From the NCBI RefSeq assembly GCF_037443965.1, contig NZ_JBBINI010000014.1:6431-70430 (forward strand): a stretch of DNA of 64,000 nucleotides. Reading direction: 5' to 3'. Below, piece after piece: positions 24,480 to 45,122 of the stretch (position 1 is its first letter; each line of letters begins with the position of its first letter). The notes below the pieces were generated by a model. The model was not told the DNA's origin, ran no database searches, and saw only the letters and a program-made list of their open reading frames with translations. The position numbers and the translations under genes were made by a program. The DNA is from Meiothermus sp. (lineage in GTDB: Bacteria; Deinococcota; Deinococci; Deinococcales; Thermaceae).

Positions 24480-24836
24480 TCAGGTAGCCGTTCTGGGGGT
24501 TCCCAGCCAGTCGTAGATCAGCACCACCGCAGCAATCAGGTTGACCACGATGTTCCAGCCGCCGGTGGGCAGGCCCAAAAAGCTGCTGCTGAAGAATCCG
24601 ATGAGGGCCAGGGCGGCATAGACCAGACCAATCACTGCGGCCATCATGTGGGCCAGCCGATCACCGGTAAAGTAGCCATACAGCAGGGCTACGGCGGTAA
24701 TCAGGTAGACGATGGCCAGGCTGGTGTTGCTGGGAATAAATCCCAGGATCAGGCCGTTGGGTGCGAAAAACAGACCCAGGGCGGCCAGCAGAGCAAACAC
24801 CAGTCCCATGAAAAGGTCAATTCTTTGCGCCGTCAT
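24480..24836 (-). CDS. DUF4383-like membrane protein
   Basis: 118 aa with four TM segments. Confidence 0.6.
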   Translation of the reverse strand: MTAQRIDLFMGLVFALLAALGLFFAPNGLILGFIPSNTSLAIVYLITAVALLYGYFTGDRLAHMMAAVIGLVYAALALIGFFSSSFLGLPTGGWNIVVNLIAAVVLIYDWLGTPRTAT

Positions 24837-24845
24837 ATGTCCTCC

Positions 24846-25295
24846 TTACACCTTGGCAGGGGTCTTGATGGGGATGGGTTTGGCCTTGGCCACCTCACTC
24901 TTGGGCAGGGTGAGGGTGAGTACCCCATCCTCGAACACCGCCTCGGCTTGATCGGTCAGCACCTCGCTGGGCAGGGTTACCGAGCGCTCAAAGCGGGTGT
25001 AGCGGTGCTCGCGCAGGTGGTAGTTGCGTTCTTTCTTTTCTTCCTCCTTCTTGGCCTCACCGTAGATCCGCAGCACGTCGCCGCGTACTTCAATCTTGAT
25101 GTGCTCGGGTTTGAGGCCGGGAATCGAGGCTTTCACCACGATGTTGTTTCCTTCTTCGTAGATGTCGAGCGGCATGGCCGCCACCTCTTTGTCGAGGAAC
25201 GGAAACTCACGACGGAACAGGCTTTCGTCAAACAAGCGCTCGATTTCCCTCCGCATGTTATCCATTTCGCGCCAAGGGTCGAAACGAGCCAACAT
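24846..25295 (-). CDS. Hsp20/alpha-crystallin small heat-shock protein
   Basis: DIYEE, ASIPG, FERSVTLP, A.FEDGVLTLTLPK; RBS spacing favours ATG 25295. Confidence 0.93.
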   Translation of the reverse strand: MLARFDPWREMDNMRREIERLFDESLFRREFPFLDKEVAAMPLDIYEEGNNIVVKASIPGLKPEHIKIEVRGDVLRIYGEAKKEEEKKERNYHLREHRYTRFERSVTLPSEVLTDQAEAVFEDGVLTLTLPKSEVAKAKPIPIKTPAKV

Positions 25296-25404
25296 ACACA
25301 TGCCTCCTTTGGTCTTTTTGGCGTGGGTGGCTGCACGCCAGATTGGGACTTGGGCCTACCCTCTGGTGTTCCGAGCTGCCACCTAACCCGAAACCCAGAG
25401 GTAT

Positions 25405-26352
25405 TTACCGTCCAGCATGGGCTTCTTCAGCCACAGCCTGATCCACATTGGGCGCTGCCGGAACGGGACGAACCAGCAGCACCGGCACCGGGGCGTGATG
25501 TGACACCCCCTCGGCTACACTGCCCAGGAGCAGGCGTTCCAGCCCGGTGCGCCCGTGGGTGCCCATCACGATCAGATCGCTCTGGTTATCACGGGCAAAG
25601 TCTACAATCACCTCGGCTTCCCGCCGGGTCTGGGCCTTGAGCAGGGCCATTTTGACCTTCGGGGTTCTGGCCAGTTTGCGGGCGTTCTCCACAAGGGCCA
25701 CCCCCTCCTCCTCCATTGCCCGCAGGGTGTTTTCCCAGTTGAAGGCGTTCATGCTGGTACCGTAGGGGCCTACAACCGGAGCGGGCAGTGGGGGAATCAC
25801 GTGCAAGATTTGTAGTTCTGCCTCGAGCTCTTCTGCCAGTCGGTCGGCTAGCTCAAAGGCTGGGCGGCCTGCTTCGCTGCCGTCTATGGGGGCCAGGATA
25901 CGCTGGAACAGGCCGGTGCTGGGTTCTACCTGCCCATCTCCCCGCACCAACATTACCGGTATTTTGGCCAGCCGGCTGACCCGCTCGGCCACGCTGCCCA
26001 AAAGCATCCGACTGACCCCTTCGCGCCCATGGGTTCCCATCACAATCAGATCGCACTGGCTGCGGTTGGCCAGATAGACGATGCCCTCGGCAATGTCGTC
26101 GTCGTGCATGGGTTCGGTGCGCAGGTCGAGCTGCATCTGCCGGCCCAGCTCCTCCCAGGGTTCCAGAATTGCCCGAGCATGCCGCTGCATGGTTTCGGAT
26201 GGAGCGGACAGCCCCCAGTAGGCTGGTGGAACCTTCAAGACATGCGTAACCACCGCTGTGGCCCCCAGCTTCTTGGCAAAAGCCAGACCTACCCGTCCGG
26301 CCCGCTCGCTGCAGGATGAACCATCCACCGCAATTAGGATTTTGCGGAACAT
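25405..26352 (-). CDS. Universal stress protein (tandem USP domains)
   Basis: ILIAVDGS and two copies of DLIVMGTHGR.G..R.LLGSVAE. Confidence 0.93.
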   Translation of the reverse strand: MFRKILIAVDGSSCSERAGRVGLAFAKKLGATAVVTHVLKVPPAYWGLSAPSETMQRHARAILEPWEELGRQMQLDLRTEPMHDDDIAEGIVYLANRSQCDLIVMGTHGREGVSRMLLGSVAERVSRLAKIPVMLVRGDGQVEPSTGLFQRILAPIDGSEAGRPAFELADRLAEELEAELQILHVIPPLPAPVVGPYGTSMNAFNWENTLRAMEEEGVALVENARKLARTPKVKMALLKAQTRREAEVIVDFARDNQSDLIVMGTHGRTGLERLLLGSVAEGVSHHAPVPVLLVRPVPAAPNVDQAVAEEAHAGR

Positions 26353-26386
26353 GGCACCCTCCTTTCTCTATCTATAGCCAGCCCCC

Positions 26387-26403
26387 GTTACCAAACCATT
26401 ACC
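26387..26403 (-). promoter_or_regulatory. GGTAAY-N5-GGTAAY box 1
   Basis: GGTAAT GGTTT GGTAAC upstream of USP 26352; the first half overlaps the upstream Trp-stop codons. Confidence 0.6.
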
Positions 26404-27535
26404 AGCGGGGCAGCCCGCCCAGACCGCCAAAGGCCTTGAGCAGACGGGCCTCGGCAGGCCCCTGCACAAACTCGAGCCGGGTTCCATAGGCAGCGGCCAG
26501 CTCGGGAAGTACCTGCTTGAGGTCAATATCCTCGATGCGCCCGGCCCCGTGGGCCACCGCGCCCTCCATGCTGCCTCCCACCCAGCCATCCGGGGCGCGG
26601 TAGACCTTGTCCTCGGGGTTCCAGGGGGCCACCAGCAGATACAGGCGGCCCTGCTGCAAGAGCTCAAGGGTCTGATCCAGCCCGGCCACCCCCCGTTCGG
26701 CCAGCTCGTCCAGGAGCTTGTTTTCCCGTTCGCGCTCGAGGGGCTCCAGCACCTCCTGCACCCGCTTCAGCACCTCACCGGCCTGGGCGCTGGGGGTAGG
26801 CAGGGAGGGGAGGGTGGCAATGACCCGCTCACGCAGCCGGCGGGGAAGCAGTTCTTTGAATACCTGCACATCGGCTTTAGGGCCCATCAGCACCAGCCGT
26901 TGAACGTTGCGCTCGTTTAAGGTCTGCTCGAGCAGCCCGGCTAGGCGTTTGTAGAAGCGGTGGGTCCAGGCCTCGAGCCGGCGTTCGAAGCGGTCGGTGT
27001 TGGCGGCGGCCCGGTGGATGCCGCCCTGGCCGTAGCGCCGACCCTGGCTGTCTTCGGTGAGCTGCTTCCACTCTTGAGCCCCTACAGCCCTGAAGGCGCC
27101 CGGCAACTCCTCAATCTCGCCCAAGTACACCTCGAACATGCGCCACTTCTCGCTATCGAGGAAAATCACTCCAATCCGCTCGTACTCATCCAGTAGGTAC
27201 AGAATTGGGGTCAAGTAGGGCTCACCCCAACGGGCTTCTACCCCTTGCACCAACGGCAAATCCACCTGCAGGTCGTAGATTTCTATCCAGCCACTAGCAG
27301 CAAAGATAACCCGGCTGCGGGCTTGGGGTGCGTCGTGCTCGAGCGCCTCCAGCACCTTCTTACTTACCTCCGATGGAGTTCGTATAGCCTCGAGCACAGC
27401 CCTGGTTCTTAGCACATAGGCTTTACCCTGGTTGTCGGGGTTGGCCGGGTTCACGTCCAGATACAACGACAATACCGGAGCCACCCTCGGAGCCACAAAC
27501 TCGCGGATGTAGCGAGTACCTTCTTGGGTCAACAT
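26399..27535 (-). CDS. aeRF1-like (baeRF/VLRF1) protein, Balon/Rv2629-like, copy 1
   Basis: LSLYLDVNPANPDN, WGEPYLTP, RLVLMGP, L7Ae-like C-terminus; no GGQ. Confidence 0.75.
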   Translation of the reverse strand: MLTQEGTRYIREFVAPRVAPVLSLYLDVNPANPDNQGKAYVLRTRAVLEAIRTPSEVSKKVLEALEHDAPQARSRVIFAASGWIEIYDLQVDLPLVQGVEARWGEPYLTPILYLLDEYERIGVIFLDSEKWRMFEVYLGEIEELPGAFRAVGAQEWKQLTEDSQGRRYGQGGIHRAAANTDRFERRLEAWTHRFYKRLAGLLEQTLNERNVQRLVLMGPKADVQVFKELLPRRLRERVIATLPSLPTPSAQAGEVLKRVQEVLEPLERERENKLLDELAERGVAGLDQTLELLQQGRLYLLVAPWNPEDKVYRAPDGWVGGSMEGAVAHGAGRIEDIDLKQVLPELAAAYGTRLEFVQGPAEARLLKAFGGLGGLPRW

Positions 27536-27618
27536 GATAACCTCCTTGCTTTGTCGTAGTCGTTACCTATATCGAAGAGATACTTATACCCTCCCCAAGC
27601 TGATTGAACTCCAGACCA

Positions 27619-27635
27619 ATTACCCATCCATTACC
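27619..27635 (-). promoter_or_regulatory. GGTAAY-N5-GGTAAY box 2
   Basis: GGTAAT GGATG GGTAAT upstream of 27535. Confidence 0.7.
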
Positions 27636-27732
27636 GAACTAGGTTCGGCTTACGCTGTGGCTCGAGGTCGTATGCGTTGCCCACAACCGTCAAATTTGAA
27701 TGTTTCTAGCCTGCCCAACGTACCTTGATGCA

Positions 27733-28551
27733 TCAAGCCTGTGGGCTTTTAGCGCTTAGGCCACGCGCCTCGTGATAAGGGAGGATGGGACTGCCCTGTT
27801 TGATGTGTTCGGCCAGCTCGTGGGTTTCGGGCATGGGTGTGTCGCCTAATTCTTCGTGTAGAAATTTTACAAAGCGGCGATAATGCTCGATGGCTTTGTA
27901 GCGATCTCCTAAGGCAGCTAGGCACCACATCAGACGCTGGTGATAGTTCTCCCCAATATAGGGATCAGCTTTCAAGGCCCGCTCGAGATAATCGCTGGTG
28001 GCTCGCCAGTCTTCCTGGTCGTAATAAATCAGGGCAACCTCCAGCAGCGCTTGTACGTAGGCCGTTTTGTGCTCTTCGCGGGCTTGTGAAACCCAGTTGG
28101 TTGCGAAACCCGGCAGATAATCGCCCCGGTAGAGCGAGATGGCCTTGTTGTAGGCTTTCAGGCGGGCTGTTTCACAGGCGGTGTGGTGTCCTTCGCTGAG
28201 GGCCTGGTAGAAACCAAACAGATCGGTGCTCTGCAAAACGGCTTCAGCTAGGCGATAGCGCCCGTGCTCTTCCAGGATGGCCTCGGGGTTACCCAGCGCA
28301 GTACGAATGCGAAAAATGGTTACCCGAAAGCGGTTGTTGGCCACCGGGTCGGGGTCGAGGCCCCATAGGGTCTCGAGGATTTCCCCCTTGCTGCGGCCTT
28401 CGGGATAAGAGAGTAGATAGAAGAAGAGTTCCTCGGCGGTCTGGGCATGCCACTGCGCGGGATGCCCCGCCACCAGCACCTCCACCTGGCCCAGGGTGCG
28501 TACCCGGAGCGCAGGCACTGCCTGTTCTGAACGGGACTGCAACCTTTTCAT
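27733..28551 (-). CDS. SARP-family regulator (OmpR-type wHTH plus BTAD), no sensor domain
   Basis: LRVRTLG, LFFYLL, LETLW, RIRTALG, LYRGDYLPG, DPYIGE.YHQRLM. Confidence 0.88.
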   Translation of the reverse strand: MKRLQSRSEQAVPALRVRTLGQVEVLVAGHPAQWHAQTAEELFFYLLSYPEGRSKGEILETLWGLDPDPVANNRFRVTIFRIRTALGNPEAILEEHGRYRLAEAVLQSTDLFGFYQALSEGHHTACETARLKAYNKAISLYRGDYLPGFATNWVSQAREEHKTAYVQALLEVALIYYDQEDWRATSDYLERALKADPYIGENYHQRLMWCLAALGDRYKAIEHYRRFVKFLHEELGDTPMPETHELAEHIKQGSPILPYHEARGLSAKSPQA

Positions 28552-28562
28552 GGCTTAAGTCT

Positions 28563-28579
28563 GTTACAAATCCATTACC
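28563..28579 (-). promoter_or_regulatory. GGTAAY-N5-GGTAAY box 3 (autoregulatory position)
   Basis: GGTAAT GGATT TGTAAC, 11 nt before the SARP ATG. Confidence 0.6.
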
Positions 28580-28759: not shown

Positions 28760-28776
28760 GGTAACACCTTGGTAAT
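28760..28776 (+). promoter_or_regulatory. GGTAAY-N5-GGTAAY box 4
   Basis: GGTAAC ACCTT GGTAAT, 10 nt, CATTTT; upstream of USP 28829. Confidence 0.7.
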
Positions 28777-28828
28777 GCCCTGGATGCATTTTGGACTCAG
28801 GTAGGTATTGAACCAACAGGAGGTGCTT

Positions 28829-29266
28829 GTGTTTCGTCACATCTTGGTACCTGTGGGTCTGGGAGCGGGCAGCCAGGCTGCCGTTCAACACGCTCTCAAT
28901 CTTTCCCGTTGGCTGGGCTGCAAGGTGACGCTGCTGCATGTGCTCGAGAACGCCGATGATTCGGTTTCCGAGACCTTCGCTAAGATGGCCCAGGGGGCGC
29001 GTCGAAAGCCTACCGTGTTGCTGGTGGAGCCCCAGAGCCAGAGCATTGGCGAGGTGGTAGCCCAGACAGCCCAGCAGACCCATGCCGACCTGATCGTTAT
29101 TGGCTGCCATGACACACCCCGGCAGACTTCGGAGGTGCTGGGGGCAGCGGCCCAGAGTATTGTGGCAGGCTCTAGAGTACCGGTTCAGGTGGTTCCCGGT
29201 GCAGAGTTGCTACAGGGCAAAACCTGGCCACAACGCTTTGCAGTCGGTGAAGTGCATGAGATATAG
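28829..29266 (+). CDS. Universal stress protein (single, degenerate domain)
   Basis: FRHILVPV, ADLIVIG; GTG start with AGGAGG RBS. Confidence 0.8.
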   Translation: MFRHILVPVGLGAGSQAAVQHALNLSRWLGCKVTLLHVLENADDSVSETFAKMAQGARRKPTVLLVEPQSQSIGEVVAQTAQQTHADLIVIGCHDTPRQTSEVLGAAAQSIVAGSRVPVQVVPGAELLQGKTWPQRFAVGEVHEI

Positions 29267-29510: not shown

Positions 29511-29969
29511 TCACGCTCCATACCCCTGCTGCATCACCTTCAGCAGGTCGAAGCGGGAGATGATGCCCACCACCCTGCCCCGCCGTACCACCGGGATGCG
29601 GTTGATGTCGTGTTTGAGCATCAGGGCCAGCACCCGCTCCAGCGAAGCCTCGGGCGAGACCGTGACCACCGGACTGTGCATGATGTCCTGGGCCCGCAGG
29701 TTACGTGCCGCCTTGTAGACCTTCTCGACCTGGTCGGGGTAGAGCCAGTTGCTGAGCACATTGGGGCTCTCGAAAAGGGAGAAAGGAACCATTCGCCCTG
29801 GGTGACGGCAAAAATCACCCTGGGTGATAATGCCAGCTAGCCGGCCTTTCTCATCCACCACTACCACGGAGCCGACGCGGTGCTCGAGCATCTTCTGGGC
29901 TACCTCGGTGAGTGGGGTCTGTGACGAGACGGTGACAATCGGCTTGACCAGGATATCTTTGGCTTTCAT
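29511..29969 (-). CDS. CBS-domain protein (Hrp1/Rv2626c-like)
   Basis: Two CBS repeats: KAKDIL..V, LAGIIT, RAQDIM, VVGIISRFD. Confidence 0.88.
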   Translation of the reverse strand: MKAKDILVKPIVTVSSQTPLTEVAQKMLEHRVGSVVVVDEKGRLAGIITQGDFCRHPGRMVPFSLFESPNVLSNWLYPDQVEKVYKAARNLRAQDIMHSPVVTVSPEASLERVLALMLKHDINRIPVVRRGRVVGIISRFDLLKVMQQGYGA

Positions 29970-29979
29970 AGCCAACCCT

Positions 29980-30429
29980 TTAAGGGTGGTGTGGTTCGCG
30001 CATGCGCACCACCAACACCGGCTTGGGGCTCCGCTGCAAAACTTTTTGTGTCACCGAGCCCAGCAAGAGCCGATCCAGCCCGCTGCGCCCGTGGGTGCCC
30101 ATCACCACCAGGTCGTGCTCGGCAGCCTCCTCCACAATCACCTGGGCGGCATTGCCCTGCTTGAGTTCGGCCTTGGCCGGAACCTCCAGGTACTGGGCGA
30201 AGCCCTCGGCCCGCTCGAGGGCCTGCTTGCCAGCTATCTCGAGGTCACGGGTGAGGTCGGGGTAGTAAGGGATGGTCTCGGGGCCAATCAGGATGCGCGG
30301 TATCACCGGCTCCACCACATACAGCAAGGTGGCCTCGGCCCCCAGGCTTTTGGCCAGCTCGAGGCCTGCCTTAACAGCGGTTTCGCTAGGGGCACTGCCA
30401 TCGGTCGGAATCAGAATTTGTTTGTACAT
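29980..30429 (-). CDS. Universal stress protein
   Basis: YKQILIPTDGS, DLVVMGTHGRSG, LLGSV. Confidence 0.93.
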   Translation of the reverse strand: MYKQILIPTDGSAPSETAVKAGLELAKSLGAEATLLYVVEPVIPRILIGPETIPYYPDLTRDLEIAGKQALERAEGFAQYLEVPAKAELKQGNAAQVIVEEAAEHDLVVMGTHGRSGLDRLLLGSVTQKVLQRSPKPVLVVRMREPHHP

Positions 30430-30443: not shown

Positions 30444-31421
30444 TTAGCGCTCCCCAGGCGGGGGGAGGTGTCGTTCTTCGGGGTGGGTCAGGGCGGCAGG
30501 GTTGCGTACCAGCAAAATGGGCTGGCGGGCCTCCTGGGCTACATCCTCGGCCACGCTACCCAGCAAGAATTTACGCAGGCCGGTACGCCCTTGGGTGCCC
30601 ATCACGATCAGGTCGGCTTTTTCCTCGTTGGCCACTTCGCAGATGCGCTCCCCAATCAGGCTCCGTCCGGCCTCCCGCAGTATGGTGTGCACTTGCGTGC
30701 AGTGTTCGCAGCGCTTTGTGGCTTCTTTCAAGATGAACTCGCCTTGCTCGCGCAGGCGGGCTTGCTCCTGGGATAGTTGGGCCTGTAGTTGGGCCTGGTC
30801 GGCAAACATCCAAGCCCGCCCTGCACTCAGGTATAGCTGGGTCAGATCGGGTACCACGTACACCACCGAGAGCTTGGCCTTCAGGGCCCCGGCCAGTGCA
30901 TCGGCGTGTTGCAGGGCCAGCTCGCTATAGACGCTGCCGTCAAAGGCTACCAAGATGCGCTTGAACAAGGTGGGCTTGGTATCGTCCCCACGCACCAGCA
31001 AGAGCGGTGTGGGGGCCAGGCGGGCCATGCGTTCGGCCACGCTGCCCAGCAGCACCCTGGGCAGGCCGGTGCGCCCGTGGGTGCCCATTACCACCAGGTC
31101 GCAGCCATGGGCAACCCCAGCATCCACCAGAGCTTCTGCAACGCCTGGGCGGCTTTCCGGCTGGGTACTGGTGAGCTGGGTGGCGCAGGCAACCTTGAGA
31201 TACTGGGCTTTGCGCTCCCACTGCTCCAACAAGGCCCGCCCCACCGTGCGGGCTCGCTCGAGCGCTTCCTGGTAGTCGTGTAGCTCGCGGTAGCGCTGCG
31301 GCTCAATGACGTGCACAAACACCACCGAAGCCCCCAGCCGCTTGGCAAGGGCCAGGCCCACGGCTGCGGCATACTCACTTGGAGGTGAGCCATCAATCGG
31401 AAGGAGAAAGCGTTTGTACAT
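30444..31421 (-). CDS. Universal stress protein (tandem)
   Basis: YKRFLLPIDGS; two MGT.GR.G..LLGSVAE motifs. Confidence 0.93.
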   Translation of the reverse strand: MYKRFLLPIDGSPPSEYAAAVGLALAKRLGASVVFVHVIEPQRYRELHDYQEALERARTVGRALLEQWERKAQYLKVACATQLTSTQPESRPGVAEALVDAGVAHGCDLVVMGTHGRTGLPRVLLGSVAERMARLAPTPLLLVRGDDTKPTLFKRILVAFDGSVYSELALQHADALAGALKAKLSVVYVVPDLTQLYLSAGRAWMFADQAQLQAQLSQEQARLREQGEFILKEATKRCEHCTQVHTILREAGRSLIGERICEVANEEKADLIVMGTQGRTGLRKFLLGSVAEDVAQEARQPILLVRNPAALTHPEERHLPPPGER

Positions 31422-31700
31422 TCCTGCCTCCAAAGATCGCCTGCAAAACCCTGCTTCTGAGCCTAGAGTACGGTAGGCAGCCCACTACTGCATCTTTACC
31501 TTAGCCTGCAGAGCGGTGTGTGCCAAGGGTTATCAGTCCTCGGGGTGACAAGGGGTGCCAGCTTGGTTCTGTGTTGGCATCGGGCCATTTTACAAAACGT
31601 TCTGCCCTGCACCTATCACGGTGATTCCTATTTTTCGCCGGTTCTGGCAACATAAAACGCGTTCAGCACGTTTTTTGGGCTTTTGAGGATTGCTGGCGTA

Positions 31701-33428
31701 TTACCCCCGCACCTCCCGAAGCCAGTCCAGGAGGGCCGCCAGCGGGTGGGTGTTGAGAACCTGGGCCGGCCCCAGCCAGGCCCGCTGGGCGGTGCCCACG
31801 GCCAGCTCCATAAAGCGCAGGTGGTCGAGCTGGTGAGCATCGGTGGAGAGGGCAAAGCGCACGCCCATCCCCCCGGCCTGCCGGGCCAGGGTGTCGGGCA
31901 GGTCCATGCGGTCGTAGTAGCCGTTGATCTCGAGGGCCTTTCCCAGGGCTTTGGCCCGGTGAAAAATCTTCTCCCAGTCGGCCTCCAGGCCCTTGCGTAC
32001 CCCCAGCATCCGGGCGGTGGGGTGGGCCAGGATGTGCACACAGGGGTGCTCCAACGCCCGCAGGAGGCGCCGGGTCTGCTGGGCACGGCTCAGGTTGAAA
32101 TGGGAGTGAACCGCCACCAGCACCACCTCGAGCTCCCGCAGCACCGGCTCCGGGTAGTCCAGGGTGCCATCGGCGGCCACCTCCACCTCGGCCCCGGCCA
32201 ACAGGTAGGGCTTGCCGCCGGTTTTTTCGTTTACCTTGCGAATTTCCCTCAGGCGGGCCTGCACCTTCTCCAGCGGCACCCCGTGGGCCACCTTGAGGCT
32301 CTGGGAATGGTCGGTGATGGCCAGGTAGGCATAGCCCAGCTTCTGGGCGGCCTGGGCCAGCTCGAGCAGGGTGGCTTTGCCATCCGACCAGCGCGAATGC
32401 ACCTGAAGGTCGCCCCGAACCTCCTCGAGCTGCACCAGCCGGGGTAGCTGTCCGGCCTGGGCGGCTTCAATTTCGCCGCTGTCCTCCCGCAGAGGGGGCG
32501 GAATCCAGGGCAGGCCCATCGCCCGGTAGACCCCGGCCTCGTCCTCACCTGCCAGGCGCGCCTCCCCCCGCCAGACCCCATACTCGTTGAGCTTAAGGCC
32601 CTGCTTCTGGGCGAGGGTGCGCAGCTTGATGCTGTGGGCTTTGGAGCCAGTCAGGTACTGCAGGCCGCTGCCCCACGCCGCAGGGGGCACGGTCTTGAAG
32701 TCCACCTGCAGGCCCCCCTGCAAAAAGACCGTGGCCCGGTTCTCGCCCACTGCTTCCACGTCGGCAATGCCCGGCAGCCGCACCAGGGCCTCGAGCACCT
32801 GGGCTGGGGTCAGGGTGGCAATCAGGAAGTCCAGGTCGCCCACCGTCTCGCGGTAGCGGCGGAATGAGCCGCAGATCTCGGCTTGCTGCACCCCCGGCTG
32901 GGCGCGCACCTGCTCGAGCAGGGCTCGAGCCTGTCCAAGCACCGCCCCCAGGGGTCTTCGCTGGGTGGCCGTCTCGGCCAGGGCCAGGTTTTCCAGCAAA
33001 TGCTGGCGCTTCTTCTCGCCGAAGCCCGGCAGGCCCAGCACCTGCTTGGAGGCCAGCGCGGCCTGGAGTTTTGCCAGCGAGTCTACCCCCAGCCGCTCCC
33101 ATAGGAGCCGGGCGGTTTTGGGCCCCACCCCCGGCACCCGCAGCACCTCCAGTACCCCCGCAGGCACCTGCTGGGCCAGCTTGCTGTGGGCCTGAAGGGT
33201 GCCCGTGCGCAGATACTCCTGAATCTTGGCGGCCAGGTCGGGGCCGATGGAGGGAAGGGCCTGCAGGGCTTCTTCTCCCTGGGCGGCAATGGCCTCGATG
33301 GGGGTCTCGAGGTCGGCCAGGGTGCGGGCAGCCTGGGTGTAGGCCCGCACCCGGAAGGGGTTCTCGCCTAGGAAGGCCAGCATCTCGGCCATCTCCTGAA
33401 ACCGTTGGGCAATCTCGGCGTTTTTCAT
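31701..33428 (-). CDS. polX: DNA polymerase X with C-terminal PHP domain
   Basis: ENPFRVRAY, GSFRR..ETVGDLD, YLTGSKAH, DLQVHS.WSDG, TDHS, STDAH. Confidence 0.95.
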   Translation of the reverse strand: MKNAEIAQRFQEMAEMLAFLGENPFRVRAYTQAARTLADLETPIEAIAAQGEEALQALPSIGPDLAAKIQEYLRTGTLQAHSKLAQQVPAGVLEVLRVPGVGPKTARLLWERLGVDSLAKLQAALASKQVLGLPGFGEKKRQHLLENLALAETATQRRPLGAVLGQARALLEQVRAQPGVQQAEICGSFRRYRETVGDLDFLIATLTPAQVLEALVRLPGIADVEAVGENRATVFLQGGLQVDFKTVPPAAWGSGLQYLTGSKAHSIKLRTLAQKQGLKLNEYGVWRGEARLAGEDEAGVYRAMGLPWIPPPLREDSGEIEAAQAGQLPRLVQLEEVRGDLQVHSRWSDGKATLLELAQAAQKLGYAYLAITDHSQSLKVAHGVPLEKVQARLREIRKVNEKTGGKPYLLAGAEVEVAADGTLDYPEPVLRELEVVLVAVHSHFNLSRAQQTRRLLRALEHPCVHILAHPTARMLGVRKGLEADWEKIFHRAKALGKALEINGYYDRMDLPDTLARQAGGMGVRFALSTDAHQLDHLRFMELAVGTAQRAWLGPAQVLNTHPLAALLDWLREVRG

Positions 33429-36663: not shown

Positions 36664-37348
36664 ACCTCTCACCCCTTGCGGTGTTATTCAGGTGATGGGA
36701 AAACCAGTCACAAGCCAGTCGGGCCACTTCCTCGAGCTTCCCCGGCTCCTCAAAGAGGTGGGTGGCCCCCGGTACGACCACCAGTTTTTTCTCACAGGTG
36801 AGATGCGCGAAGGCCTGTTGGTTGAGCCCGAGTACCTCCCCATCCCACCCACCCACAATGAGCAGCGTAGGGGCCTTGACCCTTTCCAGAGCATCCCCCG
36901 CCAGGTCGGGCCGCCCCCCACGGGAAACCACCGCCCGAATCCGGTCGGGAAGCCGCGCTGCCGCCACCAGGGCCGCCGCCGCCCCGGTGCTGGCTCCAAA
37001 ATAGGCTTGCTTGAGGTGCTGGGTTGAGGGATTCAGGGCCAGCCAGTCCGTCGCGGCTACCAGCCGCTCGGCCAACAAGCCAATGTCGAAGCGGTACTGC
37101 CGAGTGCAATCGTCTAGTTGTTCTTCTTCATAAGTTAGCAAATCGAATAATAAGGTCGCCAGCCCTGCTTGCTGTAATTCCTCAGCGATGTAGCGGTTGC
37201 GCGGGCTATGCCGACTGCTACCGCTACCGTGTGCAAAAATTACCATCCCGCCTGCCCTTGCGGGAATACCCAGATTGCCTTGAAGCACGGCTTCGGAATC
37301 GAGTGGGATCAGGATGGGTTCGGACTGAATCTGTTGGGTTCTACGCAT
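36656..37348 (-). CDS. Dienelactone hydrolase-like alpha/beta hydrolase
   Basis: FAHGSGSSRHSPRN, YFGASTG, SRGGRPD, GATHLFEE. Confidence 0.88.
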   Translation of the reverse strand: MRRTQQIQSEPILIPLDSEAVLQGNLGIPARAGGMVIFAHGSGSSRHSPRNRYIAEELQQAGLATLLFDLLTYEEEQLDDCTRQYRFDIGLLAERLVAATDWLALNPSTQHLKQAYFGASTGAAAALVAAARLPDRIRAVVSRGGRPDLAGDALERVKAPTLLIVGGWDGEVLGLNQQAFAHLTCEKKLVVVPGATHLFEEPGKLEEVARLACDWFSHHLNNTARGERYA

Positions 37349-37410: not shown

Positions 37411-37427
37411 ATTACCAAGGCGTTACC
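37411..37427 (-). promoter_or_regulatory. GGTAAY-N5-GGTAAY box 5
   Basis: GGTAAC GCCTT GGTAAT, 10 nt, CAGACT; heads the hydrolase-Lon-USP-polX operon. Confidence 0.75.
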
Positions 37428-37533
37428 AGGCTTTTGTCGAATATCTCAAACACCACTTGTGAGATGGCATCACGCCAGGTTCTATACTTGGATTGGGGCT
37501 CGTACAGGACAAGCCTATAAAGCGTGGAAATCT

Positions 37534-38343
37534 ATGGCAGGCCGATCTGAAATCAAAAACATGGCGCTCTTTTGCGATTTCGAGAATATTGCGTTGGGAG
37601 TACGGGAAGCCAAGTATCCCCAGTTCGACATTCAGAAAATCCTCGAGCGGCTTTTGCTCAAGGGCAATATTGTGGTTCGCAAGGCCTATTGCGACTGGGA
37701 ACGCTATAAGGAATTCAAAGCTGACATGCACGAGGCCGGTTTTGAACTGATCGAGATTCCCCACACCCGCCTCTCGGGCAAAAACTCCGCCGATATAAGG
37801 CTGGTGGTAGACGCCCTCGACCTCTGTTATACCAAGTCCCACGTAGACACTTTTGTGGTGATTAGCGGCGACTCCGATTTCTCCCCGTTGGTTTCCAAGC
37901 TGCGGGAAAACAACCGGCTGGTGATCGGGGTAGGGGTCAAGAAGTCAACCTCGGACTTGCTGACCGCGGCCTGCGACGAGTTCATCTTCTACGACGACCT
38001 GGTGCAAGAAGAGGCTGCCAAAAAGCGAGTTGCTCGGCCTAGTAAGCAAGAGCCCAAGGTCAAAGCAGCCGATCAGAAACTCGAGCGCGACAAGCAACAA
38101 CAAGCCATCGAACTAGTGCTCGAGACCCTCCTAGCCCTGCAAGCCGAGCGTGGCGAGGAGGAACGGATACTCAGTTCGTTGGTCAAACAAACCCTCAAGC
38201 GCCGCAAACCGGGCTTTAACGAGGCCTCTTACGGCTTCCGCTCGTTTAGTGCCCTGTTGGAGGAAGCCCAGCGCCGGGGGCTGCTACGCCTGGAGCGCGA
38301 CGAGCGCTCCGGGGGCTACATCGTGCATCCTCGAGGCGAGTAG
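37534..38343 (+). CDS. NYN-domain protein with C-terminal OST-HTH/LOTUS
   Basis: LFCDFEN, GKNSADIRL.VDA, SGDSDF, ACDEFIFY, YGFRSFSALL. Confidence 0.88.
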   Translation: MAGRSEIKNMALFCDFENIALGVREAKYPQFDIQKILERLLLKGNIVVRKAYCDWERYKEFKADMHEAGFELIEIPHTRLSGKNSADIRLVVDALDLCYTKSHVDTFVVISGDSDFSPLVSKLRENNRLVIGVGVKKSTSDLLTAACDEFIFYDDLVQEEAAKKRVARPSKQEPKVKAADQKLERDKQQQAIELVLETLLALQAERGEEERILSSLVKQTLKRRKPGFNEASYGFRSFSALLEEAQRRGLLRLERDERSGGYIVHPRGE

Positions 38344-38473: not shown

Positions 38474-38780
38474 TCAGGGGTTGCGTGCGCCGTTGATGCC
38501 CCACTTGGCCTGGAAAGCAGTCCAGTTCATGGCAAAGTAGTCACGATTTTTTTCAATGTAACCTCGCCACTGAGCCGGTACATCCTGCTCAATAAAAATT
38601 GCCGCAACAGGGCACGCAGGAACACAGGCGCCGCAGTCTATGCACTCGTCGGGGTGGATAAAAAGCATCACCTCGCCTTTGTCTTCTTCGAGGGTAGGAT
38701 GAATACACTCTACCGGGCAGACCGCTATGCAGTCGCGGTGTTTGGCACCCACAGAGGGTTCACAGATTACATGGGGCATG
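38474..38780 (-). CDS. 7Fe-type (FdxA-like) ferredoxin with one Cys-to-Ser change
   Basis: MPHVICEPS...DCIAVCPVECI, CIDCGACVPACP; RBS AAGGAGG. Confidence 0.88.
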
Positions 38781-38790: not shown

Positions 38791-38821
38791 TTGCGATCAA
38801 GCCTGTAAATTGATCGCAAAA
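38791..38821. promoter_or_regulatory. Perfect 11-bp inverted repeat touching the ferredoxin RBS
   Basis: TTTGCGATCAA-GCCTGTAAA-TTGATCGCAAA. Confidence 0.55.
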
Positions 38822-39253: not shown

Positions 39254-40429
39254 CTATGGCTGGGTTTCTTCGATATCGTCGGTCTGGGGCGCTGGTTGCT
39301 TGCTGGTGTGGGCCACTCGAGCGAAGATGCTCCCCACCTCCCACTCGGCACTGGCGGCTTCGTTGAGCCAGGCGGCGACCTGGTTGGCCTCGGCCTGCGA
39401 ACGAAGGCCTTTCTGAATGGTTTTCTGTACCGAGCGGTACAGTTGAGCGGCCCGCTCGAGCAGGTTCGCCGCTTGCAAAATCCCCTCTTCTTCGGCGAAG
39501 TGTACTCGCAGGAAATCGGCATTATCGCGGCGGGTGTAAGCTGCCGAATCAAGGAATAAGCACATCTCCTGGGGGTTGATGCTGCGCCAGTGCTTCTGGA
39601 TTTGGGTGGCGGTCTGGGCGATGGCGTCGGCCCCCTGCTTGGGGCCGTATTTCTCGCCCCCCATCAAGAGCCGGGCGTTGCGCCGCCAGACCGGCTTGAG
39701 GTCGGACTGCGTGGGCCAAGGCTCGAAGAGCGCGAAGGCATAGCGCCAGGGCTGCTTGAAATGCCTGGACTGACTGAGGGCGGCCTCGAGCAGCTTCTCG
39801 TCCGAGACCCACAAGCCCTGTTCCCCTGGGGCACGGAAGCCGGGCTCGAGAGAACTTCCCTGCATCGCCACGGTTTCGTAGTAGTAGAAGCCGTTCTGAT
39901 CGTAGCCCACCAGCAAATTGCTATGCGGGATGAAACCTCTCACGCCATACAGCACAGCGTAGTCGAGCGGGACATGCAGCGGGTGACCTCTGGAGAGGTA
40001 GAAGCGCAGCGCCCGCAGATACAGCTTGGGGTCGCGGGTCACGTAGTAGTGGCGCACCAGCCCCAAGTAGGGCGCGGCTACCGCGTGGCCGGGCTCGGGG
40101 TCGGTAAAGGGCGAGAAACCGATTTTGGGTAGAGCGCTGGCCCCGTAGGTGAATCCCATCAGGAAATTGATCTCGTCCCTCGAAGCCGTTCTCCCTTGCT
40201 GATGCGTGATCATCTGTAAGGTGTTGGCTTGGCAGTAGGTCTCGCGGGTGGAGCACCAGGGTACATCTTGCAGATGGTGATCAGGAGGGAAATACCCCAG
40301 TTGAGATTCGCTGAGCTGGATAGGTGCGTAGTTCTTGGTGAAATACTGCCGAACAAACGAGCGTAGCAGCAGCCTCCAGCCGACCCACAGGCTCAAAACA
40401 GCCAAGAGCACAACCCATACCCACACCAT
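39254..40429 (-). CDS. BtrH N-terminal/DUF4872-like papain-fold protein with N-terminal TM anchor
   Basis: TYCQAN (Cys) and PHSNLLVGYD (His-x-LxGYD). Confidence 0.6.
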   Translation of the reverse strand: MVWVWVVLLAVLSLWVGWRLLLRSFVRQYFTKNYAPIQLSESQLGYFPPDHHLQDVPWCSTRETYCQANTLQMITHQQGRTASRDEINFLMGFTYGASALPKIGFSPFTDPEPGHAVAAPYLGLVRHYYVTRDPKLYLRALRFYLSRGHPLHVPLDYAVLYGVRGFIPHSNLLVGYDQNGFYYYETVAMQGSSLEPGFRAPGEQGLWVSDEKLLEAALSQSRHFKQPWRYAFALFEPWPTQSDLKPVWRRNARLLMGGEKYGPKQGADAIAQTATQIQKHWRSINPQEMCLFLDSAAYTRRDNADFLRVHFAEEEGILQAANLLERAAQLYRSVQKTIQKGLRSQAEANQVAAWLNEAASAEWEVGSIFARVAHTSKQPAPQTDDIEETQP

Positions 40430-40474
40430 AACGACCTCCTTGGACGGTCACCGGTTCCAGGATGGTGCCGGGCG

Positions 40475-40491
40475 ATTACCAGGACATTACC
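40475..40491 (-). promoter_or_regulatory. GGTAAY-N5-GGTAAY box 6
   Basis: GGTAAT GTCCT GGTAAT, 10 nt, CATCCT; upstream of 40429. Confidence 0.75.
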
Positions 40492-41233: not shown

Positions 41234-41250
41234 AAGCGGTGCTCACGAGC

Positions 41251-41284
41251 GCTTGCTCCAGAGCTTGCTCCAGAGCTTGCTCCA
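41251..41284 (+). repeat. 12-bp tandem repeat (GCTTGCTCCAGA), about 3 copies
   Basis: Read directly just after the pdxH stop. Confidence 0.8.
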
Positions 41285-41453
41285 AGTGCCCTGCTAACTG
41301 GCAAAGGGTGTATGAGAAGCGTGATGAGACGAAACATTAAGGGTTATGTTATGTAAAAACAATAATAACACACATACAAATAGCCATTTGATTAATTTTG
41401 CAAGCCCTCATCTCACCATTTGATTTGCGCGTTCTGGATAGGATAAAGCCCGG

Positions 41454-42269: not shown

Positions 42270-42292
42270 GTGTCTCCATAGTTGAAGTGTGA
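42266..42292 (+). repeat. 21-bp direct repeat, copy 2
   Basis: Same sequence as 38343-38363; includes the TAA stop. Confidence 0.85.
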
Positions 42293-42429
42293 TACCGTTT
42301 CCGCTTGAATCCTTCACCTTTGAGTGAAATCAAGGGTGAGGTTCCGAGCCGACCGAAGGGAGTAGGAGTGTATTCCGGCAGTATCGTTTAGACTTCTAAA
42401 GGTGAACGATGCTGCCGGAATGCGTATGA
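42290..42429 (+). repeat. ~140-bp palindromic non-coding repeat (Deinococcales SRE/MITE-like)
   Basis: Ends ATACCG..TTCCG / CGGAA..CGTAT; two internal hairpins around CCGACCGAAGGGAG; related to 56191-56264 and 49008-49064. Confidence 0.75.
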
Positions 42430-44474
42430 GACCTTCATATCCCCCCGCCCCCACCGCAAAGGTGGTCGAGGAACTGCACGGGGTGCAGATTCCCGACCCC
42501 TACCGCCCCCTCGAGGACCCCCAGGCCCCCCAGACCCGGGCCTGGATCGAGGCCCAGAACCGCCTGACCTTTGGCTACCTCGAGCGAATCCCTTTGCGGG
42601 AAACCCTCAGGCGGCGGCTCGAGGAACTCTGGAACTACCCCCGCGTGCTCAGTTTCTTTAAGCGTGGGGGCCGCTACTTTAGCCTGCGCAACGACGGCCT
42701 GCAGAACCAGAACGTGCTGTATGTGCAGGAACACCTGGAGGCCACCCCCCGCGTTCTGCTCGACCCCAACACCCTCTCCGAGGACGGCACGGTGGCCCTC
42801 AGCAACTATGCTATCAGCCGGGATGGGCGCTACCTGGCCTACGCCCTGAGCAAAAGCGGCTCGGACTGGCTCACCTGGAAGGTGCGCGAGGTGGAAACGG
42901 CCCAGGACCTGCCCGACGAGATCCGCTGGAGCAAGTTCAGCGGCGCGGCCTGGCTGCCCGATGGCAGCGGGTTCTTCTACAGCCGCTACGAACAACCCGC
43001 CGAGGGCACCGACCACACCGGGGCCAACTACTTCCAGAAGGTCTATCTGCACCGCTTGGGCACCCCCCAGCAGCAGGACGTGCTGGTCTACGAGCGGCCC
43101 GACCAGAAGGAGTGGGGTTTTCAGGCCTTCGTGACCCACGATGGGCGCTACGAGTGCCTGCACGTGTGGCGGGGCACCCACCGCGAGAACCTGTTTTTCT
43201 ACCGGCCCCATGGCTCGGAGGAGCCCTTTGTTGAGCTGGTGGGCGAGTTTGTGGCCTCGTTCGAGTTCATCCGCAACCAGGGCTCCCGCTTCTACTTCAA
43301 AACCAACCTGGAGGCCCCCCGGGGCCGGGTGGTGGTGGTGGATGTGGCCCAGGGGGGGCTGGAGACCCTGGAGACCCTGGTGCCCGAGGGCGAGGACCCC
43401 CTGAGCTTTGCAGAGCCCGCGGGGGACGGGCTGGTGCTGGGCTACCTGCACCACGCCAGCCACCGGCTGGAGCTGGTGGACCTCGAGGGCCGTTCCCGGG
43501 GCCGCCTGCCCTTGCCCACGCTGGGCATGGTGCCGCTGGTGGCCGGCGAGGAGGACGAACCCGAGCTTTTTTACGGCTTCACCTCCTTTTTGTACCCCCT
43601 CACCCTCTACCACCACCACCTGACCACTGGCCAGACCCGTCCCCTGTTCACACCGCCCTTGCAGTTCGACCCCAGCCTGTACGAAACCCACCAGGTGTTT
43701 GTGCCCAGCCGGGACGGTACCCGGGTACCCCTGTTCCTGGTGCACAAAAAGGGGCTCCAGCTCGACGGACAGAACCCCACCTTGCTGTACGGCTACGGGG
43801 GCTTCAACATCCCCATGACCCCCGCCTTCAACCCAGGGCGGCTGGTCTGGCTCGAGCAGGGTGGGGTGTTTGCCCAGGCCTGCCTGCGCGGGGGCGGCGA
43901 GTACGGCGAAGACTGGTACCGGGCCGGCGCTTTGGAGTACAAGCAGAACGTCTTCGACGACTTTATCGCCTGTGCCGAGTGGCTCATCGCCCAGGGCTAT
44001 GCAAAGCCCCAGCGGCTGGCCATCCAGGGGGGCTCCAACGGGGGGCTTTTGGTAGGCGTGGCCCTCACCCAGCGCCCGGAGCTGTTTGGGGTGGCGCTGC
44101 CGGCAGTGGGGGTGCTGGACATGCTGCGTTTCCACAAGTTCACCATCGGCTGGGCCTGGGTCTCGGATTACGGCTCGCCCGACAACCCCGAGCACTTCCG
44201 CTACCTGCGGGCCTACTCACCCCTGCACAACCTAAAGCCCGGCACCCACTACCCGGCCACCCTGATCACCACCGCCGACCACGACGACCGGGTGGTGCCC
44301 GCGCACTCCTTCAAGTTTGCGGCGGCCCTGCAGGCGGCCCAGGGCGGCCCGGCCCCCATCCTCATTCGCATCCAGACCAAGGCCGGGCATGGGCTGGGCA
44401 AGCCCACCCGCATGCTGATCGAAGAACAGGCCGACATCTACGTCTTTACCCTGCATCAGATGGGCCTGGCCTAG
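42426..44474 (+). CDS. Prolyl oligopeptidase (S9A)
   Basis: DPYRPLED, LLDPN, GGSNGGLL (Ser), TADHDDRV (Asp), AGHG (His). Confidence 0.95.
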   Translation: MRPSYPPAPTAKVVEELHGVQIPDPYRPLEDPQAPQTRAWIEAQNRLTFGYLERIPLRETLRRRLEELWNYPRVLSFFKRGGRYFSLRNDGLQNQNVLYVQEHLEATPRVLLDPNTLSEDGTVALSNYAISRDGRYLAYALSKSGSDWLTWKVREVETAQDLPDEIRWSKFSGAAWLPDGSGFFYSRYEQPAEGTDHTGANYFQKVYLHRLGTPQQQDVLVYERPDQKEWGFQAFVTHDGRYECLHVWRGTHRENLFFYRPHGSEEPFVELVGEFVASFEFIRNQGSRFYFKTNLEAPRGRVVVVDVAQGGLETLETLVPEGEDPLSFAEPAGDGLVLGYLHHASHRLELVDLEGRSRGRLPLPTLGMVPLVAGEEDEPELFYGFTSFLYPLTLYHHHLTTGQTRPLFTPPLQFDPSLYETHQVFVPSRDGTRVPLFLVHKKGLQLDGQNPTLLYGYGGFNIPMTPAFNPGRLVWLEQGGVFAQACLRGGGEYGEDWYRAGALEYKQNVFDDFIACAEWLIAQGYAKPQRLAIQGGSNGGLLVGVALTQRPELFGVALPAVGVLDMLRFHKFTIGWAWVSDYGSPDNPEHFRYLRAYSPLHNLKPGTHYPATLITTADHDDRVVPAHSFKFAAALQAAQGGPAPILIRIQTKAGHGLGKPTRMLIEEQADIYVFTLHQMGLA

Positions 44475-45117
44475 CCGAGGCGGCCTGCAGCAGGGCCAGT
44501 ACCTCCTCATCCGAGGTCTGGGGAAAATGCTCGTACCACAGGCCAACCGCCTGAAAGAAAGCCGGGGTTTCCAGGCAGACCACCTCATCTACCAGGGCTT
44601 GCAATTCCGCCACCGTGTCGGGCGGGGCCACCGGCACCGCCACCACCAGCCGGGCGGGATTATGCTGTCGGGCTGCGGCAATGGCGGCCTTCATGGTGGC
44701 CCCGGTGGCCAGCCCATCGTCCACCAGCAGAACGGTTCTGCCCTTCAGGTCGGGGAAAGGCCGGTTGCCGCGGTACAACCGCTCACGGCGCTGTAGCTCG
44801 GCTCGCTGCTGTTGCTCGACGGCGGCCAGGGTGTCGGCCGAAACCTGCAAACTGTCCACAATCTCCTGGTTGAGCACCCGCCCCCCGCCCGAGGCGATGG
44901 CCCCCATGGCCAGCTCCTCGTGGCCGGGGGTGCCCAGCTTGCGCACCACCCAGACCTCCAGGGGTGCGCCAAGCCGCCGGGCTACCTGAAAGGCCACCGG
45001 CACACCCCCTCGAGGTAAACCAAACACCAGCAGGTTGGGCTGCCGGTCGTAGCCCAGCGCCACCAGCCGCTCGGCCAGCAGCGCACCGGCCTGGTTGCGG
45101 TCTTTGAAGGGTTTCAT
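44446..45117 (-). CDS. Phosphoribosyltransferase (Rv0571c/Rv2030c N-domain-like)
   Basis: FKDRNQAG, GLPRGGVPVA, VRKLG.PGHEELAMGA, LVDDGLATG. Confidence 0.9.
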   Translation of the reverse strand: MKPFKDRNQAGALLAERLVALGYDRQPNLLVFGLPRGGVPVAFQVARRLGAPLEVWVVRKLGTPGHEELAMGAIASGGGRVLNQEIVDSLQVSADTLAAVEQQQRAELQRRERLYRGNRPFPDLKGRTVLLVDDGLATGATMKAAIAAARQHNPARLVVAVPVAPPDTVAELQALVDEVVCLETPAFFQAVGLWYEHFPQTSDEEVLALLQAASARPGPSDAG

Positions 45118-45122
45118 ATCAC

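Follow-up and report, generated by a model that had tools for sequence, protein, structure and literature searches.

The stretch of DNA considered here, a 64-kb window of a Meiothermus genome of ~3 Mb, holds between positions 24480 and 45117 a set of stress genes whose families recall the DosR dormancy regulon of Mycobacterium tuberculosis. We consider it probable that this region is the core of a growth-arrest or dormancy-like regulon, activated by a SARP-family protein and functionally analogous to the DosR regulon under a different regulator. The gene identities place the families of the region, and ten promoters of the window share a conserved operator with the geometry of a SARP binding site, which co-occurs with a small SARP gene across the Deinococcota. 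From these observations we infer that the SARP protein binds the operator, that it activates rather than represses its targets, that the genes are induced together and that a limitation of energy or oxygen is the trigger.

A shared operator in ten promoters

In the upstream regions of the stress genes, GGTAAT-like hexamers were first seen to recur in pairs at a spacing of 11 bp. The operator consists of two GTAAY direct repeats spaced 11 bp apart, with the consensus TGGTAAT-N4-TGGTAAT. The pattern KGTAAY-N5-KGTAAY occurs ten times in the window against 0.03 occurrences expected from shuffled sequences, and the relaxed form GTAAY-N6-GTAAY returns the identical ten sites (0.04 expected). A scan of the window with a position weight matrix (PWM) scored these sites at 26.6–31.2 bits, with the next best position at 10.9 bits. 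All ten are intergenic, are oriented toward the downstream gene and lie 11–163 nt from its start codon. Given ten promoters with a shared operator where 0.03–0.04 sites would be expected, the grouping of these genes is more than chance.

The sites stay with orthologous genes though the gene order around the core varies between Meiothermus species. Site 1 (26387–26403, minus strand, GGTAATGGTTTGGTAAC) is the promoter site of a tandem universal stress protein (USP) gene, overlaps the stop codon of Balon1, one of two aeRF1-like genes of the window, and is kept in loci L007–L013. Site 2 (27619–27635, minus, GGTAATGGATGGGTAAT) belongs to the Balon1 promoter, where the site and a TTSAAT hexamer form a footprint across Meiothermus. 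Site 3 (28563–28579, minus, GGTAATGGATTTGTAAC) lies upstream of the SARP gene itself, as in autoregulation, and is kept in all Meiothermus orthologues, while site 4 (28760–28776, plus, GGTAACACCTTGGTAAT) is in the promoter of the USP gene divergent from it. Further along, site 5 (37411–37427, minus, GGTAACGCCTTGGTAAT) precedes a unit of alpha/beta hydrolase, LonC, USP-like and PolX genes and is kept in M. cerbereus (L006), site 6 (40475–40491, minus, GGTAATGTCCTGGTAAT) lies 45 nt upstream of the gene of a 391-amino-acid (aa) protein, and site 7 (45281–45297, minus, TGTAATCCTCTGGTAAC) is in the promoter of a phosphoribosyltransferase (PRTase) unit, with an equivalent PRTase site in L006. The last three lie in the promoters of a VanW-like gene at 53853–54932 (site 8, 54972–54988, minus; kept in L022, L023 and L113), a MalK-like ABC ATPase gene at 55047–56156 (site 9, 55000–55016, plus; kept in L022 and L023) and a tandem USP gene at 56385–57311 (site 10, 56282–56298, plus; kept in L113).

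The repeats stand in a fixed relation to a putative core promoter. A -10-like hexamer follows the second repeat by 10 nt in 10 of the 10 window sites, and across 67 distinct sites from the window and related loci a yAnnnT hexamer occurs at one fixed offset, with the A present in 56 and the T in 54. An alignment of the region upstream of Balon1 from 14 Meiothermus sequences has only both repeats and the TTSAAT hexamer conserved, with variable flanks. If the yAnnnT hexamer is the -10 element, the repeats fall at about -39 to -23, in the place of the -35 element. SARPs recruit RNA polymerase to promoters where they bind short direct repeats, set in an 11-bp register across the -35 position. The same combination of direct repeats in an 11-bp register, overlap with the -35 position and fixed distance to the -10 hexamer is found at all ten window sites and at most of the 67. 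This geometry matches that of SARP-bound promoters.

Several other motifs were considered. A reading of the repeat as a sigma-54 or extracytoplasmic function (ECF) sigma factor promoter was rejected, since two identical copies stand in an 11-bp register upstream of a -10-like TAnnnT. Between 24000 and 41000 a sigma-70-like consensus gave six matches, which is the chance level, and none of them coincides with the sites in that span; a terminator consensus also remained at chance level there. The DosR and FNR boxes were rejected as the shared operator, as the DosR-box core GGGAC-N4-6-GTCCC has no match in the window (looser matches lie mostly within coding regions) and the sole FNR-like match, TTGA-N6-TCAA at 42320, is intergenic, between the YgjP-like gene and that of prolyl oligopeptidase, and lies away from all of the listed stress genes. 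A CRP-type GTG-N10-CAC was rejected as well, with eight matches in the window, most of them inside genes.

The SARP gene and its relatives

The proposed regulator of the module is encoded within the region at 27733–28551 (minus strand) and is a small SARP-family activator with the architecture of that family, an OmpR-type winged helix and a BTAD domain. Pfam BTAD matches residues 110–250, residues 10–257 align to the SARP domain of AfsR (PDB 8hvr, RNA polymerase complexes; E = 2e-9) and the NCBIfam AfsR model matches positions 24–273 (E = 6e-11); the protein gave no match to Pfam Trans_reg_C. The nearest homologues of the SARP, as of the aeRF1-like and PRTase proteins, are Meiothermus proteins (86–97% identity), and orthologues occur in M. 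ruber (75% identity), Calidithermus (55%) and several Deinococcus species (45–55%). One homologue (P0225, 42% identity) carries added GAF domains. The GTAAY operator is assigned to this protein by co-occurrence only, which makes its binding a prediction.

Divergent from the SARP gene lies a single-domain USP gene (28808–29266, plus; likely start GTG at 28828, after AGGAGG; Pfam Usp E = 3e-16). Unlike all four canonical USPs of the window, its product has no ATP-binding motif. The divergent pairing of the two genes is kept in the M. ruber-like, D. roseus and D. cellulosilyticus loci, and so from Meiothermus to Deinococcus (L086, L088 and L090 among the loci that show it); the motif-less USP may be a partner or co-factor of the SARP regulator.

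Pfam scans of the ~80 open reading frames (ORFs) across the whole window recovered only two further regulators, a MarR-like gene (23851–24375) and CsoR (57408–57779). As the original prediction had stated, two-component genes are absent from the window: no Response_reg, HATPase_c, GerE or above-threshold HisKA domain was found, and a HisKA_3 match inside the MarR-like ORF is below threshold (17.5 bits against a cut-off of 24). CRP/FNR and NarL-type genes were not found among these ORFs either, nor were DosR, DosS or DosT, though such genes may lie elsewhere in the genome. The MarR-like gene was rejected as the regulator of the module for three reasons: a hairpin separates it from the DUF4383 gene, it heads an operon of MacB/FtsX, LolA-like and ABC exporter genes (an operon kept in the M. 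ruber-like locus L086), and the binding sites of MarR proteins are palindromes, not direct repeats.

The SARP gene and the operator co-occur in Meiothermus, Calidithermus and Deinococcus. Loci from SARP-bearing lineages contain 70 sites in 430 kb, whereas 1.2 Mb of Balon loci from elsewhere (Thermus, Chloroflexus, Acidobacteriota and other taxa) yielded one. The SARP gene itself has upstream sites, which would allow autoregulation, in Meiothermus and in D. roseus, D. cellulosilyticus and D. sonorensis. The M. ruber-like locus has its USP gene diverging from a SARP-Balon-Hsp20-DUF4383 series, with sites before the USP and Hsp20 genes. Calidithermus chliarophilus has the order SARP, Balon and phosphoenolpyruvate (PEP) synthase, adjoining a pyruvate:ferredoxin oxidoreductase cluster, and its sites stand before the Balon, Hsp20 and DUF4383 genes and one further small gene. 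D. roseus carries sites before the SARP gene, the divergent USP gene and the genes of lactate dehydrogenase, a CBS protein and PEP carboxykinase; D. cellulosilyticus carries variant sites before both the SARP and its divergent USP gene and before an operon of CBS, cytochrome c and ba3 oxidase genes; and in D. sonorensis and D. aestuarii a site precedes the SARP gene or lies just past it. In a sister Meiothermus metagenome-assembled genome (MAG) the operator precedes the gene of a 355-aa FMN-binding oxidoreductase of the Acg family (274.7 bits against an NCBIfam cut-off of 199), the family of Rv2032 and Rv3131, and in another Meiothermus genome it precedes an archease-RtcB-tandem USP series (compare Rv2631); the Acg-family oxidoreductase, archease and RtcB genes are absent from the window itself. 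On contigs of one Thermaceae MAG the operator is found before ba3 oxidase subunit II, before PEP synthase (with a divergent Fer4_20 oxidoreductase) and before a P-type ATPase. The kinetics of ba3 oxidase have been taken to reflect adaptation to a microaerobic setting (PMC8509429).

A metagenome scan for the operator with its -10 hexamer also returned many low-GC contigs with a single site, which are probably chance matches, and only contigs with homologues of the window or with several sites were used. Separately, five metagenome contigs of GC ~0.68 (L097, L101, L108, L124 and L136) have four tandem GTAAT repeats in an 11-bp register before the gene of a 1361-aa protein that has a FecR domain and weakly matches collagen repeats; a distantly related BTAD protein (28% identity) is also encoded on L101 and L136. 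These contigs seem to represent a separate SARP regulon, of another organism, built on a similar repeat.

The synteny comparison across Meiothermus, Thermus and other phyla proposed in the original prediction, made here over 85 Balon loci, found the full combination in Meiothermus and close relatives only, so a universal synteny of the module was rejected; Chloroflexus, Bryobacteraceae and other taxa have none of the neighbours of the full combination at their Balon loci. Over the 85 loci the neighbours included Hsp20 in 31, CBS in 16 and USP in 15. Partial linkages do recur: LonC, USP-like, USP, Balon and USP genes are linked in a Trueperaceae MAG (L048), and PRTase, alpha/beta hydrolase and Balon genes are adjacent in Truepera (L074). 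Together with the joining of the USP-USP-CBS operon to Balon2, these recurrent linkages support a functional connection. A different neighbourhood, distinct from that of Meiothermus, has a serine protease of the SDH_protease/NfeD-like type near Balon in three phyla (L001, Thermus oshimai; L003 and L004, Binataceae; L005, Bryobacterales) and a rhomboid protease near Balon in Thermus and Bryobacterales.

Genes of the module and their surroundings

The original prediction had listed an Hsp20, five USP or USP-like genes with a sixth further on, a CBS protein, a 7Fe ferredoxin, a PRTase, an alpha/beta hydrolase and an aeRF1-like protein. All were recovered where it had placed them or close by, through Pfam or, for the ferredoxin, a cysteine motif and NCBIfam and, for the USP-like gene, a USP profile; the fifth, USP-like gene is that at 33425–34231 (minus) and the sixth USP that at 56385–57311 (plus). 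The DNA of the window is present in subsurface and hot-spring metagenome DNA runs, and the RNA runs searched contained no match to it.

Balon1 (26399–27535, minus) is an aeRF1-like protein of Pfam baeRF_family10 (E = 5e-34), whose sole PDB match is the Balon MSMEG_1130 of M. smegmatis (8v9j; E = 7e-6), and Balon2 (51680–52843, plus; Pfam E = 7e-28) is a paralog 47% identical to it. Both have the aeRF1-like fold and lack the GGQ and NIKS motifs. Neither falls within the characterised subfamilies, with Balon1 at 75.6 bits against MSMEG_1130_fam (cut-off 480) and 23.7 bits against Rv2629_fam (cut-off 320), far below both NCBIfam cut-offs, and Balon2 likewise distant; the NCBI name for close homologues of the aeRF1-like protein is 'VLRF1 family aeRF1-type release factor'. 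Judged from its sequence the protein is a distant Balon-type factor with a predicted role in ribosome hibernation. Balon proteins are ribosome hibernation factors present in two to four copies in many genomes (Helena-Bueno et al. 2024, PMC10901736). Hibernation activity is documented for Balon homologues, Rv2629 included. Their genes usually belong to stress operons in which Hsp20 is one of the neighbours, and this holds in Deinococcus-Thermus too; one mycobacterial copy adjoins Hrp1 (PMC10901736). In other Meiothermus genomes (L022, L024 and L137) the Balon2 paralog directly follows the USP-USP-CBS operon.

The unit behind site 1 consists of a tandem USP gene (25405–26352, minus; Pfam Usp E = 4e-64), with the ATP motif G-2x-G-9x-G[ST] in both domains, the Hsp20/alpha-crystallin small heat-shock protein gene (24846–25301, minus; PF00011, E = 1e-21) and, as its last gene, a small membrane protein of the DUF4383 family (24480–24836, minus; PF14325). 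Two loci that lack the tandem USP, L006 of M. cerbereus and the M. ruber-like L086, have the operator directly before Hsp20; DUF4383 is conserved after Hsp20 in Meiothermus and has its own operator in Calidithermus (L087). Weaker sites directly upstream of the Hsp20 and ferredoxin genes of the window were sought with the PWM and none was found. A hairpin, AAACGGGG...CCCCGTTT at 24440–24470 between DUF4383 and the MarR-like gene, probably ends the unit.

Site 5 serves an operon that begins with an alpha/beta hydrolase of dienelactone-hydrolase-like type (36656–37348, minus; Pfam Abhydrolase_1 and DLH), followed by a LonC-type Lon-like protease (34228–36672, minus; Pfam AAA_32, LonC_helical and Lon_C), a divergent USP-like protein (33425–34231, minus) and, last, the DNA polymerase PolX (31701–33428, minus; pol beta-like and PHP, Pfam HHH_8, DNA_pol_B_thumb and PHP). 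The best PDB match of LonC is 4fwd (TTC1975 peptidase/endopeptidase La; E = 9e-98), presumably the LonC of Meiothermus taiwanensis. The USP-like gene, whose ATG overlaps the LonC stop codon, has no Pfam match, and the N-terminal half of its product aligns to a profile built from the USP domains of the window (hhalign, 94.9% probability). A NYN + OST-HTH/LOTUS protein, a putative RNase or RNA-binding protein, is encoded divergently from this operon at 37459–38343 (plus), with the operator pointing away from it.

Behind site 6 the 391-aa protein gene (39254–40429, minus; an N-terminal membrane helix and no Pfam or NCBIfam match) comes first, followed by a gene for a small membrane protein and then by the 7Fe ferredoxin (38474–38779, minus). 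The ferredoxin has the cysteine pattern C-x10-C-x3-C-P plus CxxCxxCxxxCP and is FdxA-like, at E = 4e-26 but below the cut-offs of the NCBIfam FdxA models. A perfect 10-bp inverted repeat, TTGCGATCAA-N9-TTGATCGCAA at 38791–38819, lies just upstream of the ferredoxin ribosome-binding site (RBS) and could be the site of a separate regulator or an mRNA hairpin. It suggests that the ferredoxin has its own control, possibly its own promoter, and the membership of this gene in the regulon is uncertain.

The PRTase (44446–45117, minus; Pfam Pribosyltran) is a stand-alone protein with T. thermophilus TT1426 (1wd5; E = 6e-46) as its best PDB match, and the best 120 of more than 8000 PRTase homologues are all stand-alone proteins of ~220 aa with no hydrolase fusion of the Rv0571c type among them. 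Between site 7 and the PRTase start lies a 37-codon ORF (MRPILLITDQKTTEETPRTRLVARQVSGALCATHAQR; 45119–45232, minus) with a strong AAGGAGG RBS. Only 2 nt separate its stop codon from the ATG of the PRTase, so it could encode a leader or translationally coupled peptide. ATP motifs are present in the tandem USP at 56385–57311 (plus; Pfam Usp E = 6e-60).

The USP-USP-CBS operon starts with a tandem USP with ATP motifs (30444–31433, minus; Pfam Usp E = 1e-62) and continues with a single USP with the ATP motif (29980–30429, minus; E = 1e-33) and the CBS-pair protein (29511–29975, minus; Pfam CBS E = 7e-35). Comparisons with M. tuberculosis proteins were made through solved-structure entries and Pfam and NCBIfam models. 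The CBS-pair protein is a distant match to Rv2626c (E = 4e-10), and the best solved-structure matches of the USP and CBS proteins are not M. tuberculosis proteins. The operator stands before CBS genes of D. roseus and D. cellulosilyticus. The second-best solved structure for the CBS-pair protein is Dri, a CBS-domain ribosome hibernation factor of Pyrobaculum (9e6q; E = 1e-23), a match that may reflect generic CBS similarity and that raises the question of whether Balon-linked CBS proteins associate with ribosomes. Elsewhere in the window, an island at 3004–6200 of low GC (0.52 against ~0.62) with four plus-strand ORFs of 632, 149, 128 and 151 aa and no Pfam match may be a horizontally acquired block.

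Known systems and alternative explanations

The DosR-regulon genes named in the original prediction agree with a published review (PMC5309233), and the families characteristic of that regulon are present here as judged by Pfam and NCBIfam. Those shared are Hsp20 (hspX), USPs with ATP motifs including tandem forms (Rv2623 type), CBS (Rv2626c), ferredoxin (fdxA) and Balon (Rv2629), with PRTase likened by description to Rv0571c and, following the original prediction, Rv2030c. Rv0571c and Rv2030c are hydrolase-PRTase fusions. In sister genomes the Acg-family oxidoreductase (Rv2032/Rv3131) and RtcB (Rv2631) extend the overlap. The claimed DosR-like content is thus wider than first noted, through the Acg-family and archease-RtcB genes behind the operator in sister Meiothermus, and holds at the level of families only. 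The layout is shared as well, with dispersed promoters that carry one operator and include the promoter of the regulator itself. The control is different. DosR is a NarL-type response regulator with heme kinases, and here the regulator is a one-component SARP; the DosR operator is a palindrome, and that of Meiothermus is a direct repeat overlapping the -35 position. No DosR/DosS pair was found in the window, as predicted, and the DosR box is absent too. As the regulator family and the operator differ, the module is not a member of the DosR system, and LonC, PolX, VanW and the MalK-like ATPase are additions of the Meiothermus module.

Actinomycete SARPs (AfsR, ActII-ORF4 and DnrI) share the winged helix and BTAD, the repeats in an 11-bp register overlapping -35 and the lack of a recognisable -35 element, but each governs one antibiotic biosynthesis cluster in Actinomycetota, whereas the targets here are dispersed genes of stress, hibernation and respiration in Deinococcota. 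The actinomycete SARP repeat is of the TCGAGXX type, and here it is TGGTAAT. The Balon systems already described (PMC10901736) share an aeRF1-like protein without GGQ and NIKS and an adjacent Hsp20, with two copies in the window, though that work gives no regulator or operator and the window proteins are distant from the Balons studied. DnrS of Thermus thermophilus, a GAF and BTAD protein, is an oxygen-responsive activator of nitrate respiration (PMC5748679). By description it shares the BTAD and the bacterial family with the window SARP, itself a proposed activator, and it controls a response to anoxia; it differs in its GAF domain and its place on a nitrate-respiration element, whereas the window SARP has no GAF domain, is chromosomal and is not beside nar genes. 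The oxygen response of DnrS and the genes of respiration and fermentation that the operator precedes in relatives make limitation of oxygen or energy a reasonable guess for the trigger, and no more than that.

A number of observations weigh against a SARP-activated, DosR-like regulon. The SARP protein has no sensor domain, and its OmpR-type winged helix is of a kind that typically binds direct repeats ~11 bp apart, so the operator would suit other proteins with this fold. Site 3 is only 11 nt from the first in-frame ATG of the SARP gene, which makes the start of that gene uncertain, and either the true start lies further downstream or site 3 represses. The wiring of the module to a different regulator family, as originally proposed, is supported for the many genes that the GTAAY operator would co-regulate, and does not extend to the USP-USP-CBS operon or to Balon2, where PWM scans found no operator (in 31434–31700 and upstream of Balon2, respectively). 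The ferredoxin is attached only loosely, two genes downstream of site 6, and VanW, the MalK-like ATPase, LonC and PolX are in the regulon without a DosR counterpart. Conversely, the DosR hallmarks narK2/narX, tgs1, nrdZ and pfkB were not seen behind the operator. Within 24480–45117, pdxH, YgjP, prolyl oligopeptidase and the NYN gene have no tie to the module. The Balon gene of Thermus oshimai is part of a dnaK-grpE-dnaJ-clpB-Hsp20 cluster that has neither USPs nor the operator, which marks the module as lineage-specific.

The Thermus cluster also bears on a plainer reading, in which the region is an island for general stress, heat shock or stationary phase, without a special link to oxygen or dormancy, and its likeness to DosR comes from the commonness of USP, Hsp20 and CBS families. 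This is possible, though we think it unlikely. Balon occurs widely in stress operons with Hsp20, DnaK and others (PMC10901736), the common neighbours in our 85 loci were the very families Hsp20, CBS and USP, and the likeness to M. tuberculosis is one of families only; yet the overlap takes in uncommon families (the Acg-type oxidoreductase, RtcB with archease, PRTase with alpha/beta hydrolase, and Balon), and the ba3 oxidase, lactate dehydrogenase and PEP synthase genes behind the operator in relatives, with the pyruvate:ferredoxin oxidoreductase cluster beside the SARP-Balon genes of Calidithermus, point to respiratory or energy limitation. A further alternative accepts the operator but has it bound by another protein from outside the window, such as an OmpR/PhoB-family response regulator, so that the SARP gene is merely a target and control is two-component. 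The affinity of OmpR-type helices for such repeats, the absence of a sensor domain from the SARP and the restriction of the window to 64 kb of the genome would all suit this, but we regard it as quite improbable: the operator accompanies the SARP orthologue from Meiothermus through to Deinococcus, a site is always present at the SARP gene, which usually stands amid the targets, and repeats over -35 at a fixed distance to a -10-like hexamer are the SARP arrangement. That abundant families simply accumulated in a rearrangement-prone region under no common control is hardly credible. Gene order does vary, with the hydrolase-LonC and PRTase blocks rearranged in M. cerbereus L006 and the USP-USP-CBS operon adjoining Balon2 in L022 and L024, but the sites far exceed the expectation from shuffles, are all positioned as promoters and are kept at orthologous genes despite the rearrangements.

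If a SARP-activated regulon is the correct explanation, the SARP would bind the two GTAAY repeats in place of a -35 element and bring in RNA polymerase, in the manner of actinomycete SARPs. Its targets in the window would be its own gene, the divergent USP without the ATP motif, Balon1, the tandem USP-Hsp20-DUF4383 unit, the hydrolase-LonC-USP-like-PolX unit, the 391-aa gene with the small membrane protein and possibly the ferredoxin, the PRTase, the VanW-like gene, the MalK-like ATPase and the tandem USP at 56385–57311. Balon would then shut down and protect ribosomes, Hsp20 as a holdase and LonC would hold or degrade damaged proteins, the USPs with ATP motifs would bind nucleotides, PolX would repair DNA and, in sister genomes, RtcB would repair RNA; the PRTase and the alpha/beta hydrolase would be enzymes without an assigned role in the programme. 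More speculative, and in our view doubtful, is the idea of a cross-phylum 'dormancy toolkit' of Balon, ATP-binding USPs, Hsp20, an Acg-type flavoprotein, RtcB with archease, PRTase with alpha/beta hydrolase, and CBS, captured independently by unrelated regulators (DosRST in Actinobacteria and a sensor-less SARP in Deinococcota). In such a scheme the divergent USP might act as sensor or co-factor, and positive autoregulation of the SARP might give a switch-like growth arrest at low oxygen or energy.

The placement of Balon in stress operons and the families of the DosR regulon are already known. Our literature searches turned up no description in Deinococcota of a SARP regulon, of this operator or of a master regulator of growth arrest or hibernation. 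The co-regulation of uncommon families (Balon, Acg, RtcB, PRTase with hydrolase, USPs and Hsp20) in two distant phyla under unrelated regulators argues for a functional unit, and a non-pathogenic thermophilic system would be on offer for the uncharacterised proteins of the DosR regulon. Should the SARP-activated regulon be borne out, SARPs, best known for the antibiotic clusters of actinomycetes, could run a dispersed stress regulon in another phylum. Growth arrest and ribosome hibernation would then have a defined master regulator and operator in the Deinococcota, and the operator would serve as a simple predictor of regulon members in any Deinococcota genome.

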